37,068 nucleotides of DNA. Origin: Promethearchaeota archaeon (GTDB taxonomy: Archaea > Asgardarchaeota > Lokiarchaeia > Sigyniarchaeales > SOKP01). The DNA is taken from contig SDNY01000027.1 in NCBI GenBank assembly GCA_004524535.1, forward strand, positions 1 through 37,068. The letters are read 5' to 3'. Shown here piece by piece: positions 30,269-36,999 of this stretch. A program made the position numbers and the translations under genes. How positions within the stretch are numbered: position 1 is the first letter of the stretch; each line of letters begins with the position of its first letter. The notes below the pieces were generated by a model. It was given only the letters and a program-made list of their open reading frames with translations. It did no database searches and had not been told where the DNA came from.

Positions 30269-31102
30269 CTAGTGAATATTTTTTAGAAGTTCTAAATAAT
30301 CACTATAATTTTCTCGCGTAATTGAATATTTTTTAGTAGTAGAACCCCATCTTATATTATTTCGAATATTATGTAAAAAGCCCTTTGCATTAATAATCCT
30401 AGTACCCCCAACTACATTAATTCCCCTTTTAAAGAGAGGATCGGGTAAAAATCCAGCAGTAGGCCCTATAATCGAAGTTTTTTCTGCATTTGAGCAAAAT
30501 TTTAGAATATCATCGATTGTATCGTTCAATATTGTGGTACTAGTTAATAATACTTTATTGCAGTCTTCTAAATTAGTGGGATCTAAAGTAACTACCCAGT
30601 TCTTTTCTTTTTTCACTAAATCCTCTTTTAATTCAATAATAACTAATTTATTCCCTCTTTCCTCAATCTTTTTAACAAGCGGTGGAAAAAAACCGACCAT
30701 TCCCACTATATCTTTTTCATATATGTTTAATAAGCCTAAAGAATCTGAAGTATGATCAAAGGAAAAATTAGTTTTTTTAAAAAAAAATTGACTAATTGCA
30801 TTAATAGCTCCCATACTTAAGGATTTTTTATACAAATTATTGGATGTAAAATTCTTTACTAAATCCATTGGAGAAATATCTTTATATTCTTTTGAATCGA
30901 TTTTAAGAATTTCTTTCTTGACTTCTCGAGTTAATGCTACAAAGAAAATACCGATTGAGTTATCTTCTAATATTATTGCTGCAAAATTTGATTTTTTTGC
31001 TTTCTCATCAACAGCTGGAACAATAATTTCTTTAATTAATGGAATTTGAACTCTCTTAGCAATATCATTTAAGATTACCTGATATTCGGAAGATATTGTC
31101 AT
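30269..31102 (-). CDS. DUF364 (Rossmann-like) family protein
   Basis: MGAINAISQ, VGMVGFFPP, IIEL, LLTSTTILNDTID, IIGPTA, GVNV-like VVGG. Confidence 0.85.
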   Translation of the reverse strand: MTISSEYQVILNDIAKRVQIPLIKEIIVPAVDEKAKKSNFAAIILEDNSIGIFFVALTREVKKEILKIDSKEYKDISPMDLVKNFTSNNLYKKSLSMGAINAISQFFFKKTNFSFDHTSDSLGLLNIYEKDIVGMVGFFPPLVKKIEERGNKLVIIELKEDLVKKEKNWVVTLDPTNLEDCNKVLLTSTTILNDTIDDILKFCSNAEKTSIIGPTAGFLPDPLFKRGINVVGGTRIINAKGFLHNIRNNIRWGSTTKKYSITRENYSDYLELLKNIH

Positions 31103-31147
31103 CTTTAAATTAATTAATTGTAAAATTTAAAAGAAGTTCTAATAACT

Positions 31148-33337
31148 TTATTGATAGGGTTTAATAACGTGAATAACGTCATCAAAATCGATTCCTAACT
31201 CTTTTACTAACTCAATGGTTGGGCAACCAAACGCATTCCAACCACGTTGTTGATATACCGCCTCTTGAAGTTTAAAATACTGAATTTCTCTATATTTTCG
31301 CAAAATTTTCATTTTTTCTTCAGTAGATTTACCTTCGATATCTATATCGAGCTCTTTTAATTGGTCATCATATCTTTTTTGGCGACTTTCATATTCCATT
31401 TTTGTTACGGGTCCCATTGCTCTATAAGGTATATTGGAATCATGTTCCCTTAAACCCTTACCTTGACGAATATTAAAAATCCTTTGTAAATTATAGACAC
31501 GTTCGGACATTCGGATAAGATCATCAGGATCTGCTTTGATGCCTGTTACTGCTGTATAATAATCTGCATACCATTGAACATGTTGTGGAATTTTAGCTTG
31601 TAATAGTTCCCCTGCCATCTTAATCGGCAAATCAAAATTAGATGGAGGAGGGACGTCATTCCAAGGGAGTTTACAGAGTCCACATAACCCAAACCAAGTT
31701 CTCCATAAAGGGAACCAATACAATGCTTTAGCTTTATCTTCAAATGTCGGAATTGAATGACGCACGACATCCTCAAAAATCAACCATGCTTCATCATGTT
31801 GAGGCCCTTTGTTTGTTAAAGCATATCCTCCTTGTTGAGTGAGTGATTCTTTTGTAACATATTCAGAAAATTCAAGTCCTTTATGCTCCATACCTATATC
31901 TTGAAGAAATCGTGGGTTGCCACCATATTTAGCTGCAAATATCTCTTTCATTTTTTTAATTCCTTGACCAACGACCAGACCAAAACCCTCTCCTCGTGCC
32001 ATTTGATGAATTAATTCAATTGCGGCTTCAGCATTTCCAAACTGTAATTCAAGCCCTCCCGTGATTTCTTTATTTATAATTCCCTCTTCATAACATTCCA
32101 TCACAAACGCAATTCCAGTTCCGACTCCTATGGTATCCAAACCATAAGTATCACAGTAAAAATTTGCCTCCATAACCCATTGAGGATCCCATACACCCCA
32201 ATTTGATCCACATCCCGCAATAGTTTCATATTCAGGACCATCAATTATTACTTTTTCTCCTTTAAACTCCCCCGTCATAACTTCATAGCCTTCCACCCAG
32301 TGACTACAGCTAACGCTACACCCAAAAAAGCATCCATCTGATCCCTTTCCCGTATGTTCCCCGAAAAGATCTGCCCATACTTGGCGTTTATAAGGGATTT
32401 CTTTATCTTTAATTTCACGATGTTGTCCAAATCGAAAATTTTCAGTCGGGAGTAAATCTGTAATATTCATAATATCTGGAAGGTATCCAGTTCCTACAAT
32501 TCTCATTTGGTTCATAGAAGGATCGTAGGTTATTATTTCTTTTTTGTGTTTCCTCCCGATCTCAATTAATTTTTCTGGATCAGCAGGATTATTATTTTTA
32601 ACATCATATCGAGGAGATCGACATATTAATGCTTTAATTTTTTTATTAGCAAATACACTCCCAATTCCACCCCTACCTGCTTGTTTACAAGAAGCCCATT
32701 TCCTTTTTCGTGCATACCACGAGGAATTTAGCATCCCCCATCTTGTGTGCTTTGCGGCAGGTCCTGTACTAACTACAGAAACCATCTGTTTTTCTTTTTC
32801 CGTAGGTTCTTTCGCAAAGTTTTCTGTTAACTGTTGAGTAAGAAGATGTGATAAGTCTGAAAGATTGTCTGATTCTTCAACCTTTATAATTTGAACCATG
32901 TGATCTTGCCCATTAATAAATATCAACACATCATTTTCGGCTTTTCCTTGAATTTCGAGGGTATCAAAACCAGAATATTTTAGATAGGGTCCGAAATGCC
33001 CTCCTACATTACTGTCTATCACAATTCCAGTCAGAGGGGAAATTGCAGTAACTATAGATTTACCTCCTCCAGGATAATATGTACTGGCTCCTAAAGGACC
33101 TGTTGCCCAACAGATTTCATTTTCAGGGTCGTCCCATTTAACAATTCTGTCTTTCGGTAAGCTGTTCCACATAAGCCAAAGATCAAAACCCCTACCACCG
33201 ATGAATTTTTCTTTCATTTCATCAGTTACAGGTTTAATTTTAATTTCGTTTGTTGTTAAATTAATGTATAAAGTTCGATTTGTATATCCTCGACTCATAT
33301 CTTGGTGGTCATACTTGAGTTCTGCTAATATCAACAC
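31148..33337 (-). CDS. aor: Aldehyde:ferredoxin oxidoreductase family tungstoenzyme
   Basis: FIGGRG, SPLTG...SNVGG, AGRGGIGSVFANKKIKA, CFFGCSVSC, GPEYET, DTYGLDTI, GLCKLPW, YQQRGW. Confidence 0.93.
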   Translation of the reverse strand: MLILAELKYDHQDMSRGYTNRTLYINLTTNEIKIKPVTDEMKEKFIGGRGFDLWLMWNSLPKDRIVKWDDPENEICWATGPLGASTYYPGGGKSIVTAISPLTGIVIDSNVGGHFGPYLKYSGFDTLEIQGKAENDVLIFINGQDHMVQIIKVEESDNLSDLSHLLTQQLTENFAKEPTEKEKQMVSVVSTGPAAKHTRWGMLNSSWYARKRKWASCKQAGRGGIGSVFANKKIKALICRSPRYDVKNNNPADPEKLIEIGRKHKKEIITYDPSMNQMRIVGTGYLPDIMNITDLLPTENFRFGQHREIKDKEIPYKRQVWADLFGEHTGKGSDGCFFGCSVSCSHWVEGYEVMTGEFKGEKVIIDGPEYETIAGCGSNWGVWDPQWVMEANFYCDTYGLDTIGVGTGIAFVMECYEEGIINKEITGGLELQFGNAEAAIELIHQMARGEGFGLVVGQGIKKMKEIFAAKYGGNPRFLQDIGMEHKGLEFSEYVTKESLTQQGGYALTNKGPQHDEAWLIFEDVVRHSIPTFEDKAKALYWFPLWRTWFGLCGLCKLPWNDVPPPSNFDLPIKMAGELLQAKIPQHVQWYADYYTAVTGIKADPDDLIRMSERVYNLQRIFNIRQGKGLREHDSNIPYRAMGPVTKMEYESRQKRYDDQLKELDIDIEGKSTEEKMKILRKYREIQYFKLQEAVYQQRGWNAFGCPTIELVKELGIDFDDVIHVIKPYQ

Positions 33338-33548: not shown

Positions 33549-34418
33549 ATGGATGATATAACCGAAAAAGTTCGAGAAATACAGAAAAAATTTAAGATCA
33601 TTGGACGATCAGAGGAGCTTAAAAAAATTATTCTAGCCCGCATTGTTGGCAAGAACATATTAATTGAAGGAGAAGTAGGTGTTGGCAAAACAACACTTGC
33701 ACAGGCGATTTCGAATTATTTTGATTCAGATTTTAATCGTATTGATTGTTCAGAAGATACTCTTACTCACAATTTAGTGGGACATTGGGATCCTCCATTA
33801 GTTATTTCAAATGGATATATAGAGGATTCATATGTATATGGTCCTCTTGCTTCAGCTATGTCCAATGGTGGATGCTTATTCATAAATGAAATAAATAGAA
33901 TGCCCGAAAGTACTCAAAATGCCTTATTAACTGCATTAGACGAGAGAATTCTTGATATTCCTAAATTAAAAACAATCCACGCTACTGATAATTTCTTTGT
34001 AGTTGCCACCCTAAATCCTTCGGCTCATGTGGGTGTATCTGTATTAGGAGAAGCCATAAAAGATAGATTTATTTGGATTAAGATTGATTATCAGAAGCCG
34101 GAAGAAGAGATTGAAATTATTAAACAAGAAGTTAAACTTAATGGGGATTTAGACGATAAAATTGCTAGAATTTCCCAGGAAATAGTTCAAATAACAAGAA
34201 ATAACCCCTCACTCCGTAGAGGAAGCTCTATAAGAGGATCTATTGATTTAGCAGCGCTTATATCTCAATACGATACAAATAATAGTACCAAAAACTGGAT
34301 TGAAGCAGCTATTATGGCTCTTTATAATAAAATTGAACTTGAAGACGGTGTGTCAAAATCCAAAAAGGAAATTATAACTGAGATTGTTTTATCGGTATTG
34401 AATAGTTCGGATTTTTAG
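33549..34418 (+). CDS. MoxR-like AAA+ ATPase
   Basis: IIGRSEEL, GEVGVGKTT (Walker A), LFINEINRMP (Walker B with N for D), ATLNP, AIKDRF, SSIRG. Confidence 0.92.
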   Translation: MDDITEKVREIQKKFKIIGRSEELKKIILARIVGKNILIEGEVGVGKTTLAQAISNYFDSDFNRIDCSEDTLTHNLVGHWDPPLVISNGYIEDSYVYGPLASAMSNGGCLFINEINRMPESTQNALLTALDERILDIPKLKTIHATDNFFVVATLNPSAHVGVSVLGEAIKDRFIWIKIDYQKPEEEIEIIKQEVKLNGDLDDKIARISQEIVQITRNNPSLRRGSSIRGSIDLAALISQYDTNNSTKNWIEAAIMALYNKIELEDGVSKSKKEIITEIVLSVLNSSDF

Positions 34419-34458
34419 TAATCGATGATTTCTCGACGGAAAATTCCGAAGAGATTGA
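34409..34458 (+). promoter_or_regulatory. Candidate -1 ribosomal frameshift signal (G_GAT_TTT + stop + bulged stem-loop)
   Basis: Heptamer 34409-34415 immediately before the MoxR TAG. The -1 frame is open to 35533. Downstream pairing TCGAT/ATTGA, CTC/GAG and CGGA-AAAT-TCCG starts 6 nt after the heptamer. Confidence 0.6.
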
Positions 34459-35533
34459 GAGTAAAAGGCTTAAAGTTAGACTTACGGAAAGACCTCCTGA
34501 TAAAGAGATTTTAAGATTAGAGATAATTAGAAAAAAGAAAAATAAACCCGATTATTATCGACATTTGGCAAATTCGTTAGATTATAAACAAATAAAGGAA
34601 ATGACATACTTAGCAATCCAGTATAAAAACCTTGAAGCTATTATGGGTATGCTTAAGTCAAACGTTTACGCAGCGACGGATGCCTTAGACTGCGAAGAGG
34701 GGGTAAAATTTTTTACCGAAAAATCTAAAGAATCAAATATGGTTATGCCGGAGATATATTTTTTTATTAGACGACCAATTTCTACAAAATATAAAAATAT
34801 CTTTAGAAGGCTTGCCCGTCAAAGCATTTTAAAAACGTCCCTTAAAATCACAAGCAGAGGTATTAAAGGAAAGGTAAAAAAGACTTTCCCTTATTATGAA
34901 ATTGGAATGCCTGAATTTGATTTGGATGAGACCATACAGCATAAACCTTTGAAGATCTATGAGAAAAGTTTATCTTACAATGATATATATGGAATTAAAA
35001 GGCAACAACAAAAGAGAAATGTGGTTTTAATTCTTGATACGAGTGGTAGTATGTATGGAAAAACACTATTAAATGCCGCTCTTACAACATCTGTTCTAGC
35101 CTATAATATGGAGAAAGAAAATTATGGTATAGTGCTTTTCAATTCAACAGCTATGACATTAAAAAAAATTAAAGAGAAAAAATCAGTTATTTCTATTATC
35201 GATGAAATTCTAGATTCCGAGGCTGTAGGATTTACTAACATCCAAATTGGTTTAGAGAAAGGTTTAAAACAATTAAATCAAGTTAAAGAAAATAGAAAAC
35301 ATAAATTTGGTATTTTAATTACTGATGGAAATTATAATCGTGGAGAAAATCCTCTTGCTATCTCAAAAAAATATCCTAAATTGCATGTAATAGGGATGCC
35401 CGCAGAAAATGACGCTGATAGAGGTATTGATACTTGTCGAGAACTTGCTAAAGCTGGAAAAGGAAAATTTTTTGCCGTAACCGATTATAAAGAAATTCCG
35501 AGAGCACTCATAAATTTATTATCTCAAACTTAG
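34415..35533 (+). CDS. von Willebrand factor A domain protein (MoxR partner), possibly expressed as a frameshift fusion
   Basis: EFDLDETI, LILDTSGSM (MIDAS), GFTNI..GL, ILITDG. The frame is open from 34406, about 50 codons before the first TTG at 34565. Confidence 0.88.
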   Translation, partial: LVIDDFSTENSEEIESKRLKVRLTERPPDKEILRLEIIRKKKNKPDYYRHLANSLDYKQIKEMTYLAIQYKNLEAIMGMLKSNVYAATDALDCEEGVKFFTEKSKESNMVMPEIYFFIRRPISTKYKNIFRRLARQSILKTSLKITSRGIKGKVKKTFPYYEIGMPEFDLDETIQHKPLKIYEKSLSYNDIYGIKRQQQKRNVVLILDTSGSMYGKTLLNAALTTSVLAYNMEKENYGIVLFNSTAMTLKKIKEKKSVISIIDEILDSEAVGFTNIQIGLEKGLKQLNQVKENRKHKFGILITDGNYNRGENPLAISKKYPKLHVIGMPAENDADRGIDTCRELAKAGKGKFFAVTDYKEIPRALINLLSQT

Positions 35534-35667: not shown

Positions 35668-36999
35668 GTGGTAAGACCACCGACAAAAAGAAATATTTGT
35701 TTGCTTTGTAAAGGTGCCCGGTTATATTGTGGGAAAAAAACATGTCCAATCTTATTAAAGCAATCTATCCTAAAATCTATCATCCCTTTTGAATGGGGAA
35801 AATCTAAACGGAATGTTGAGATTTTCGGCGCAAGTCCACCTGGATTTTTTGTTGGAAGATACAATTATCCAAATGTAGCTGTTGGTCCCCTCATCCCTTT
35901 TAAAGAATTTGAATCAAATCTCAATATTGAAGATCATCACATTCTTGATGCTCCTGAACTTTGGTTTGGCAAACAAATGGCTGAAGTTATTCAATATAGG
36001 AGTAGTTTAGTTCGGAGTAATTTTAAAATAAATATTAAAATTGACGAGCAAAAATTAAAAAATACTCCTCCGATAAGTGCTCAAAAATTATTAGAAACCT
36101 CGCAGGAACTTTCAATGGCCGCCCGTCCGGTAGATACGGAAACAAAATTGCAAAAATTAAATCTACGGATGATAATGGATAATCATGCTCTACCCGTAGG
36201 TCCTTCGGGTATTACAGAAAAAATAAGAATTACAGAAAATGTAAAGGTCCATCCAAAGGTGGATTATTGCGTATCTGATACTGATTTAAAGGCCCAAGAG
36301 GCTATATCTGAACATCTTTATCTTAAAGGAAGTGTTCCATTATCGTCAATTCAAAGAGTTTTTTCAGCAGGATTGCTTGGGGAAAAAAATAAGCGAAAAT
36401 TGGTACCTACGCGATGGGCAATAACTGCAATAGATGATATGATCTCAAAAAGATTAATTAATGAAGTTAAAAAATTCCCTGAGATTAACGATTATAGAAT
36501 TTTTGAAGCTAAATATCTTGATAATCATTTTAAAATTCTCTTGTTTCCCGGAAAATTCACCTATGAAATGAACGAAGTTTGGGCACCAAATTCATTATGG
36601 AATATTTCTCTTTCTGGAAATAATCGCAATTTAAAACCCCAAATAATGACAGATTTTGAATTTTATAGAGGCCGGAAATCATACGCAAGTAATATAACGG
36701 GTGCGTATTACGCTGCCCGAAAAGCAGTTTGCGATTATTTATTTAAATTAAGAAGACAAGCACGCATTTTAATTTTTCGAGAGGTCTCTTCTGGATATGT
36801 GGTTCCGTTAGGCGTATGGGTTATAAGGGAAACTGTAAAAAACGCTGTTGAATCGAATGAACCTATAATTTTAGATAATTTCGATGCTGCACTTAATAAA
36901 ATGACTGAAGGGCTAATTGTTGATATAAAACTCTGGAAAAAAAGTAGTAAATTAATTGATTTTATTAAAACACAAACTACTCTTGATAACTTTTTATAA
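35668..36999 (+). CDS. nreA: Archaeal DNA repair protein NreA
   Basis: N-terminal CLLCKG..LYCG...CP, GASPP.FVG..NYP, RKLVPTRWAITAID, GAYYAAR, PLGVWVIRE, C-terminal PIP box QTTLDNFL. Confidence 0.93.
   Translation: MVRPPTKRNICLLCKGARLYCGKKTCPILLKQSILKSIIPFEWGKSKRNVEIFGASPPGFFVGRYNYPNVAVGPLIPFKEFESNLNIEDHHILDAPELWFGKQMAEVIQYRSSLVRSNFKINIKIDEQKLKNTPPISAQKLLETSQELSMAARPVDTETKLQKLNLRMIMDNHALPVGPSGITEKIRITENVKVHPKVDYCVSDTDLKAQEAISEHLYLKGSVPLSSIQRVFSAGLLGEKNKRKLVPTRWAITAIDDMISKRLINEVKKFPEINDYRIFEAKYLDNHFKILLFPGKFTYEMNEVWAPNSLWNISLSGNNRNLKPQIMTDFEFYRGRKSYASNITGAYYAARKAVCDYLFKLRRQARILIFREVSSGYVVPLGVWVIRETVKNAVESNEPIILDNFDAALNKMTEGLIVDIKLWKKSSKLIDFIKTQTTLDNFL

Follow-up and report, generated by a model that had tools for sequence, protein, structure and literature searches.

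Introduction

Some chlD and bchD genes yield an AAA+ subunit by normal decoding and an AAA+-linker-vWA (von Willebrand factor type A) protein by a -1 frameshift (PMC3711429, PMC9227772). This is the closest functional precedent for the locus described here, a MoxR-class AAA+ ATPase gene that is continued in the -1 frame by a vWA-encoding frame. The locus lies at positions 33,549 to 35,533 of a 37,068-nucleotide (nt) stretch of DNA, hereafter the window, from a Promethearchaeota archaeon (Asgardarchaeota; Lokiarchaeia; contig SDNY01000027.1 of assembly GCA_004524535.1). As here, the chlD region has in-frame fused homologues elsewhere and is annotated publicly as two adjacent genes. The chlD shift site is A_AAA_AAR or a longer poly-A run, and the efficiency of frameshifting grew with poly-A length (PMC3711429), whereas the site considered here is a U-rich N_NNT_TTN beside a stop codon. 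The chlD cases come from Pseudomonas, Burkholderia, Delftia, Herpetosiphon and Methanococcales, and their AAA+ family differs from the MoxR class (AAA_5/AAA_3) found here in Asgard archaea.

At the protein level, CbbQ-CbbO and NorQ-NorD also pair an AAA_5 motor with a partner that has a C-terminal vWA/MIDAS (metal-ion-dependent adhesion site) domain, and they are hexameric (PMC4660213). CbbQO is reported to carry one adaptor per hexamer (CbbQ6-CbbO1), with the vWA domain in the adaptor role (PMC4660213), and NorD has a pore-inserting finger (PMC13036017). Those partners are separate proteins with their own starts, whereas the adaptor here lacks a start and, in the reading we favor, would be covalently attached to an ATPase subunit. 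Midasin/Rea1 likewise has an AAA_5 ring, an acidic linker and a C-terminal MIDAS, but all six of its AAA modules sit on one chain; for CbbQO, the comparison with midasin was made by Tsai et al. (PMC4660213).

At the RNA level, the heptamer in the window is identical to that of pea enation mosaic virus 2 (PEMV2), an umbravirus. The PEMV2 site, G_GAU_UUU_UGG_UAG, had its heptamer mapped by mutation (PMC4737148), and the stop 3 nt past G_GAU_UUU is required for frameshifting (PMC5009743). At the loci studied here the 0-frame stop follows after 0-1 codons, at the position that the virus requires. PEMV2 differs in being a plant RNA virus translated by eukaryotic ribosomes, with defined hairpins and a long-range interaction, whereas the window holds a cellular archaeal gene whose family shows no significant local structure.

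In its available text, a 2021 recoding review names as archaeal frameshifts just fucA1 from a single Saccharolobus species, a small number of haloviruses and one predicted case in a chelatase (PMC8211752). Like the locus here, fucA1 of Saccharolobus solfataricus is a cellular archaeal gene with two overlapping frames, a slippery heptamer and full-length relatives. It is interrupted in only two strains of one species (PMC8211752), and its shift rescues one enzyme, whereas the site in the window is kept across 20 families and would give two useful products. A search of the literature on MoxR/vWA proteins and on Asgard and Lokiarchaeota frameshifting found no report of this site, although subscription journals or the supplement of PMC3711429, with its 146 frameshift clusters, could hold one. 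The locus would follow the logic of chlD, but its ATPase belongs to another family, and its site, U-rich and like those of viruses, is conserved across Asgard archaea.

An earlier note, made from the sequence of the window alone, had proposed a programmed -1 frameshift producing both the ATPase and an ATPase-vWA fusion. It cited chlD and the activity of G_GAU_UUU in plant RNA viruses, and both precedents hold, the latter for PEMV2. It suggested looking in orthologous loci for the slippery site, the -1 phase, coding conservation of 34415-34564 and natural in-frame fusions, and using reads to look for a homopolymer error in the T5 run. Here we report what such an analysis found.

Organization of the locus

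The 3' end of the ATPase open reading frame (ORF) reads AGT TCG GAT TTT TAG. The -1 frame has a TAG at 34403-34405 and is open from 34406 to the TAG at 35531-35533; its 375 codons are referred to as P0001. The features of the locus are listed below.

33549..34418, plus strand: 0-frame ORF of a predicted MoxR-class AAA+ ATPase, 289 amino acids (aa), assigned with Pfam; stop TAG at 34416-34418
34409..34415, plus strand: putative shift site G_GAT_TTT (0-frame codons GAT TTT), where tRNA-Phe could re-pair on T_TT one base back
34416..34418, plus strand: 0-frame stop adjoining the shift site on its 3' side, a possible stimulator whose position is kept among junctions
34410..34434, plus strand: near-invariant 25-nt block in an alignment of 40 family sequences, comprising shift site, stop and 16 nt beyond
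34415..35533, plus strand: continuation in the -1 frame after a slip, 372 codons and a stop, with predicted acidic linker, helical domain and vWA domain
34565..34567, plus strand: first canonical start (TTG) of the -1 frame, codon 54, not conserved and within a confident helix (48-55) of the structural model
35018..35500, plus strand: vWA domain, P0001 residues 205-365, from Pfam VWA and fold matches that include NorD in NorQD complexes

A slip on the TTT at 34413-34415 would join 289 and 372 residues into a computed product of 661 aa. The earlier note gave the end of the ATPase gene and the extent of the -1 frame exactly, and its estimate of about 661 aa for the fusion agrees with this sum. 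It also stated that the first TTG has no evident Shine-Dalgarno (SD) motif. This stands, in that inspection of the sequence revealed no purine-rich SD-like motif before TTG 34565.

Pfam scored the ATPase ORF at 83.9 bits for AAA_5 (cut-off 22) and 70.4 bits for AAA_3 (cut-off 27). With both domains above the gathering score and a Walker A motif present (G-x-x-G-x-G-K-T, residues 41-48), the protein is assigned by sequence as a MoxR-class AAA+ ATPase. The Walker B motif of AAA+ proteins is usually D-E; at this position the window ATPase and the fused relatives P0026, P0031 and P0042 have hydrophobic-N-E, and P0077 has E-E. P0001 scored 50.7 bits for VWA (cut-off 23.8) over residues 205-365. An AlphaFold2 (AF2) model of P0001, made with an alignment of 24 sequences (mean predicted local distance difference test score, pLDDT, 82), shows residues 1-27 as disordered (pLDDT below 50), confident helices over residues 32-148 and a vWA fold over residues 205-375. 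D211, S213 and S215 of the MIDAS motif D-x-S-x-S are invariant among the aligned relatives.

Reading phase and putative shift site in related loci

P0001 was searched against 60 related genomes, most of which proved to have an orthologue, in open frames of 367-466 aa. In the window's family the matches set in at residue 2-3 of this frame, in sister families at residue 6-25. We gathered 30 loci from this search, 17 by coordinates, 80 from public records of genomes with Promethearchaeota, Promethearchaeia or another Asgard name in the title, 30 from 301 genomes of the phylum with a fused relative as query, and 20 from families previously unsampled. All 177 loci were classed by one script. Because the two collections of genomes overlap, the -1 junctions were de-duplicated on a 180-nt junction window, which left 141 distinct junctions.

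The vWA frame was in the -1 phase in 161 of the 177 Asgard loci, in the +1 phase in 6 and fused with the ATPase as a single frame in 5; in the remaining 5, a contig end had removed one of the genes. The -1 state was found in 20 families of the phylum (by the tool's family labels) and is by far the commonest among the sampled loci, although separate and fused states also exist. Its recurrence at 161 of the 177 loci puts this arrangement far beyond chance.

A TTN codon with a preceding T lies 0-2 codons before the stop in 139 of the 141 distinct junctions. The distance from the shift codon to the stop is 0 codons in 39, 1 codon in 99 and 2 codons in 1. G_GAT_TTT accounts for 76 junctions, canonical X_XXY_YYZ heptamers for 41 (among them A_AAT_TTT, T_TTT_TTC, T_TTT_TTA and G_GGT_TTT), A_GAT_TTT for 17 and other heptamers for 5. 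The two exceptions are L045, with a TTG overlapping its TGA stop, and L169, with T_TTT_TTC five codons before the stop.

The codon before TTT varies in amino acid (Asp, Asn, His, Leu or Pro), yet its final T is always kept. One codon further upstream, 68 of the 85 distinct junctions of the window's family have TCG, GCG, ACG, ATG, TTG, GTG or CTG, and the others end in A (16) or T (1). Thus Ser, Ala, Thr, Met, Val and Leu interchange while the final G mostly stays, against a background of 12.4% G at third positions in genes of the family. Third-position entropy over the last 20 ATPase codons of the same 85 junctions is 0.65-1.85 bits, mostly above 1.1. It falls to 0-0.37 bits across the 27 nt from GAT to a TTC six codons into the -1 frame and returns downstream to mostly 1.0-1.6 bits. 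The constrained block is partly double-coding, but its 12-13 nt past the stop are single-coding and still near-invariant. By these patterns the slippery site, silent bases included, is kept beyond coding needs.

At L026, a TGA of the -1 frame lies directly before TTT. Therefore, entry into the vWA frame is confined there between T_TTT and the stop two codons later.

Coding conservation and start codons of the vWA frame

The junction Phe is at least 90% conserved. Upstream of it nothing is conserved in the vWA frame, and conservation runs from Phe onwards. In the stretch before the window's first TTG, entropy at -1-frame codon positions 1, 2 and 3 is 0.73, 0.39 and 1.44 bits, a codon periodicity that supports coding across 34415-34564.

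Start codons show no such conservation. The first ATG, GTG or TTG of the vWA frame falls anywhere from codon 1 to codon 97 among orthologues, and none is conserved. A canonical start lies within -7 to +15 nt of the stop in only 18 of 141 junctions, and no SD-like motif precedes the junction in the window.

An ATG at 34424-34426, in the ATPase frame two codons past the stop, is invariant in the family because the vWA frame has Asp-Asp codons at this place. In the window, a 0-frame ORF of 30 codons starts with it.

The relative P0009 (322 aa) has the public record 'vWA domain-containing protein [Candidatus Freyarchaeota archaeon]', and its length fits an internal-start call. Many library matches to the vWA profile described below are likewise 280-360 aa as called by gene finders. 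The current annotation of P0009 misses about 50 N-terminal residues and the link to the ATPase.

Fused and separate forms in relatives

We also searched 1.84 billion representative proteins with a profile built from 24 vWA frames. Many matches are 560-710 aa long with the vWA part at the C-terminus, and 10 of the 15 long matches scanned with Pfam contain AAA_5 or AAA_3 plus VWA. The best natural fusion, P0026 (711 aa), has 50% identity to the window ATPase over residues 1-289 and continues in frame right after S-D-F, with a linker that resembles the window's -1 frame. Natural in-frame fusions thus exist, and they break at the same residue as the window junction.

One genome encodes frames of 834 and 857 aa with a related C-terminal vWA part (G000:C26:37045-38022 and G000:C32:8038-8901; L031 and L032). 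Two long proteins similar to these, P0125 and P0148, have a Pfam VWA domain only and no AAA+ domain.

In family f25 (L130-L136), five genomes have a single frame of 669-733 aa with TTT TTT at the junction. In two further genomes of this family, the vWA frame is +1 over the same T6 run with no nearby ATG; these could represent a +1 shift, a homopolymer indel or decay. In f32 (three loci, L175-L177) and f23 (L139), the vWA gene is in the +1 phase with its own ATG 7-10 nt past the ATPase stop, and these pairs look like conventional separate genes. The ATPases of f32 and f23 end in F-F-R, as at the junction of fused forms.

Reads across the T5 run

Reads of four sequencing runs were compared over 33900-35000. 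The probable source contig (X1) is identical to the window across 33900-34752. The window is matched over 33900-34840 by X6, a contig of 1277 nt from an independent study, with 42 substitutions and 0 gaps, and a 151-nt metatranscriptome contig covers 34317-34467 with one substitution, no gap and the T5 run intact. Because X6, X1 and the orthologous assemblies cross the site unchanged, the T5 run is real and a homopolymer error is excluded. Two DNA contigs and one contig from an RNA library therefore carry no extra base, and a message, or contaminating DNA of the RNA library, spans the junction unedited.

RNA structure near the putative shift site

The earlier note had placed a bulged stem-loop 6 nt past the heptamer.

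34422..34458, plus strand: predicted minimum free energy (MFE) fold of that stem-loop, -12 kcal/mol, indistinguishable from chance

Of 200 dinucleotide shuffles, 41 gave a fold that is no less stable (z -0.68), and the family does not conserve the structure. Its pairing holds in 85.1% of cells in the family against 83.1% in shuffled alignments, and 21 of 37 sequences disrupt the inner helix. For 40 sequences of the family, RNAalifold returned -4.6 kcal/mol, with only a 4-bp helix involving the shift site and a UCUC/GAGA helix. Rfam returned no match at E <= 1 across 34250-34700.

In other families of the phylum, a GC-rich hairpin with compensatory changes begins about 6-24 nt past the heptamer. 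Against mononucleotide shuffles, its z-score is -4.6 in L144, -3.1 in L147, -3.2 in L155 and -2.5 in L156 (all f27), about -3 in L148 and L159 (f20) and -4.1 in L171 (f19). Changes in the arms of the L156 hairpin preserve pairing.

Hairpins 6-10 nt past canonical heptamers (T_TTT_TTA, A_AAT_TTT, T_TTT_TTC) occur in f27, f20, f19 and f33, also with arm changes that preserve pairing. The f33 locus, L178, has an ATGA start/stop overlap besides its hairpin, and both routes may be open there.

In the window's family, we infer that the adjacent stop may help the shift, because a stop just past the heptamer is needed for frameshifting in PEMV2. The adjacent stop and the conserved 16-nt stretch together may substitute for a hairpin.

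Many families have a GATGA pentamer past the shift site. It was considered as a signal and dropped, because it resembles the Asp-Asp/Glu codons of the acidic linker (GAT 114, GAC 3) and is unaligned between the window's family and its sister family.

Protein family and genomic neighborhood

The nearest single-domain solved relatives of the ATPase are 2r44 (61 bits), NorQ (47.7 bits) and CbbQ (43.8 bits). No NCBIfam model reached its cut-off for the pair, the nearest being GvpN (71.5 vs 266.8 bits) and MadB. VWA_CoxE scored 22.5 bits, below its cut-off of 26.4, and the NorD and CbbO models of NCBIfam also stayed below theirs. Fold matches to the vWA model are generic vWA domains, with NorD chains of NorQD complexes among the top.

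A ChlI/ChlD (BchI/BchD) chelatase was considered and rejected: PF01078 Mg_chelatase gave 25.8 bits over profile positions 4-44 only, TIGR02031 gave 18.6 bits against 499.55, and TIGR02442 gave 27.5 against 779.45. The long product does share the ChlD layout of AAA+ module, acidic linker and vWA domain. Neither the genes nearby in the window nor the commonest neighbors include a chelatase large subunit. An affinity with midasin was also rejected, because its E-value of 2e-43 adds up seven weak matches to single modules (8-37 bits each) and Rea1-MIDAS comes only 32nd in the list of fold matches; no specific relationship is shown.

The window holds the following genes on either side of the pair.

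30269-33337, minus strand, divergently upstream: DUF364 'heavy-metal chelation' protein and a 729-aa aldehyde:ferredoxin oxidoreductase (AOR)
35668-36999, plus strand, downstream: archaeal Nre protein

The earlier note had suggested AOR as a possible client. Synteny does not support this: by tblastn, AOR was found upstream at 1 of the 70 loci that have at least 900 nt of upstream DNA. Nre was downstream at 12 of 64 full-length loci. Among 80 loci (L050-L129), the commonest neighbors were, on the downstream side, a Ras-family small GTPase (27 loci) and, upstream, MoeA on the same strand and an FTR1 iron permease (23 loci each); there was no general neighbor of the pair. MoeA, together with the window's tungsten enzyme AOR, hints weakly at a metal-cofactor link.

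Discussion

The locus probably undergoes programmed -1 ribosomal frameshifting that yields both the ATPase and a 661-aa ATPase-linker-vWA fusion. This was the core of the earlier note, and it is supported by the phase, the shift site and the coding conservation in orthologous loci, by the absence of a conserved start and by natural fusions.

Most ribosomes would stop at the TAG at 34416 and release the 289-aa MoxR-class ATPase. A fraction would slip one base back with tRNA-Phe on the TTT at 34413-34415, re-read T_TTT as TTT, and then decode TTA GTA ATC and onward in the -1 frame to 35533. In the resulting protein, the full ATPase would be followed by about 25 residues of acidic, disordered linker, then by a helical domain and the vWA (MIDAS) domain. 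The vWA part has no initiation codon of its own and would therefore be made only as a fusion. By analogy with CbbQ6-CbbO1 and NorQ-NorD, free ATPase and fusion may co-assemble as one hexameric ring in which one or a few tethered vWA adaptors hold the client. The efficiency of frameshifting would then set the number of tethered adaptors per ring, and the fusion is plausibly a minority product that sets the ring:adaptor stoichiometry. The ribosomal nature of the slippage, its efficiency, the co-assembly and the existence of a client are what we infer here.

Several observations weigh against a programmed frameshift. The support for it is comparative throughout, and the loci behind the count of 161 in 177 are kin, so that such counts overstate independence. 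A -1 phase by itself is also expected of ordinary ATGA or TGATG gene overlaps. In some lineages a start does overlap the stop (TTGA in L045, TTG ATG in L137 and ATGA in L178), and coupled initiation may therefore operate there (18 of 141 junctions in all). The f32 and f23 genes with their own ATG show that a vWA protein is viable on its own. The heptamer G_GAT_TTT falls outside the canonical type, since re-pairing by the P-site tRNA-Asp is poor. Downstream structure is no better than in shuffles in the window's family and order, with z-scores of -1.1 and -0.68 for the window and positive values in 8 of 19 order-level sequences tested. Finally, contigs drop rare variants, so the RNA contig leaves room for a minority of slipped transcripts.

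Four other explanations were weighed. The two frames could encode two proteins, with re-initiation or fresh initiation on a non-canonical junction codon (ATA, ATC or GTA) giving a free vWA protein of 370 aa. This would account for the phase, as ATGA and TGATG overlaps likewise set the downstream gene at -1, and it could draw on the near-cognate ATA or GTA, followed by ATC, that are near-invariant just past the stop in the family, as well as on the canonical starts close to some stops and the ATGs of f32 and f23. However, the near-cognate codons are by-products of reading the 0-frame stop one base earlier (NTA) and differ across families, and no SD-like motif precedes the junction in the window. 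Initiation there also leaves unexplained why the T before TTT and the G before GAT are kept despite amino acid change, why canonical heptamers and hairpins occur elsewhere, and why fusions are broken at the same residue. We regard it as unlikely. An internal start at the canonical TTG 34565 is more improbable still; it would give a 322-aa protein, the annotated length of P0009 and within the range of many gene-caller matches of 280-360 aa, and would make 34419-34564 an untranslated spacer. The periodicity of that stretch is that of coding sequence, and its protein is conserved; among orthologues the first start lies anywhere between codons 1 and 97; and a start at codon 54 would cut the confident helices 32-55 of the AF2 model.

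RNA polymerase could insert or skip a U in the T run, so that a share of the transcripts would hold the whole fusion in a single frame. Every junction has a run of 4-7 T, one family shows both in-frame and +1 versions at this run and so marks it as indel-prone, and chlD efficiency rises with poly-A length (PMC3711429). Most junctions of the window's family, however, have only four T (G_GAT_TTT C). A run of this length is far shorter than those known to give polymerase slippage. In addition, the RNA contig has T5 without an indel, although contigs hide minor variants, and heptamer-type conservation before the run and hairpins downstream fit ribosomal slippage. Polymerase slippage thus seems quite improbable. 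An error of sequencing or assembly in the T5 run, or the decay of a fused gene into a pseudogene, might be suspected from the homopolymer and the existence of fused relatives. With the phase common to 161 loci from many assemblies, 0 gaps in the independent contig, and both frames intact and conserved, error or decay is hardly credible.

A broader picture, which we put forward tentatively, is that an obligatory -1 frameshift is ancient and common to most Asgard archaea, with the vWA adaptor existing only as a tail of the ATPase. The number of adaptors per hexamer would be set at the ribosome and could be tunable by release-factor or tRNA-Phe status at the adjacent stop. The signals would be of the kind used by eukaryotic RNA viruses (G_GAU_UUU with a stop, U_UUU_UUA, G_GGU_UUU and hairpins), and in the window's order a conserved 16-nt linear element would replace the hairpin and constitute a new kind of stimulator.

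For annotation, the programmed frameshift would mean that the public 322-aa vWA call is truncated and that many library matches are similarly short. It also predicts that a MoxR-type machine has a subunit in which ATPase and adaptor are covalently joined, a point relevant to how one adaptor is matched to a six-fold ring. If confirmed, the site would represent a cellular frameshift maintained in 20 sampled families of those archaea that stand closest to eukaryotes, and would join the few conserved ones known from genes of archaeal cells. Its shift sites also occur in eukaryotic viruses, and it would offer a natural system for studying recoding by Asgard ribosomes.

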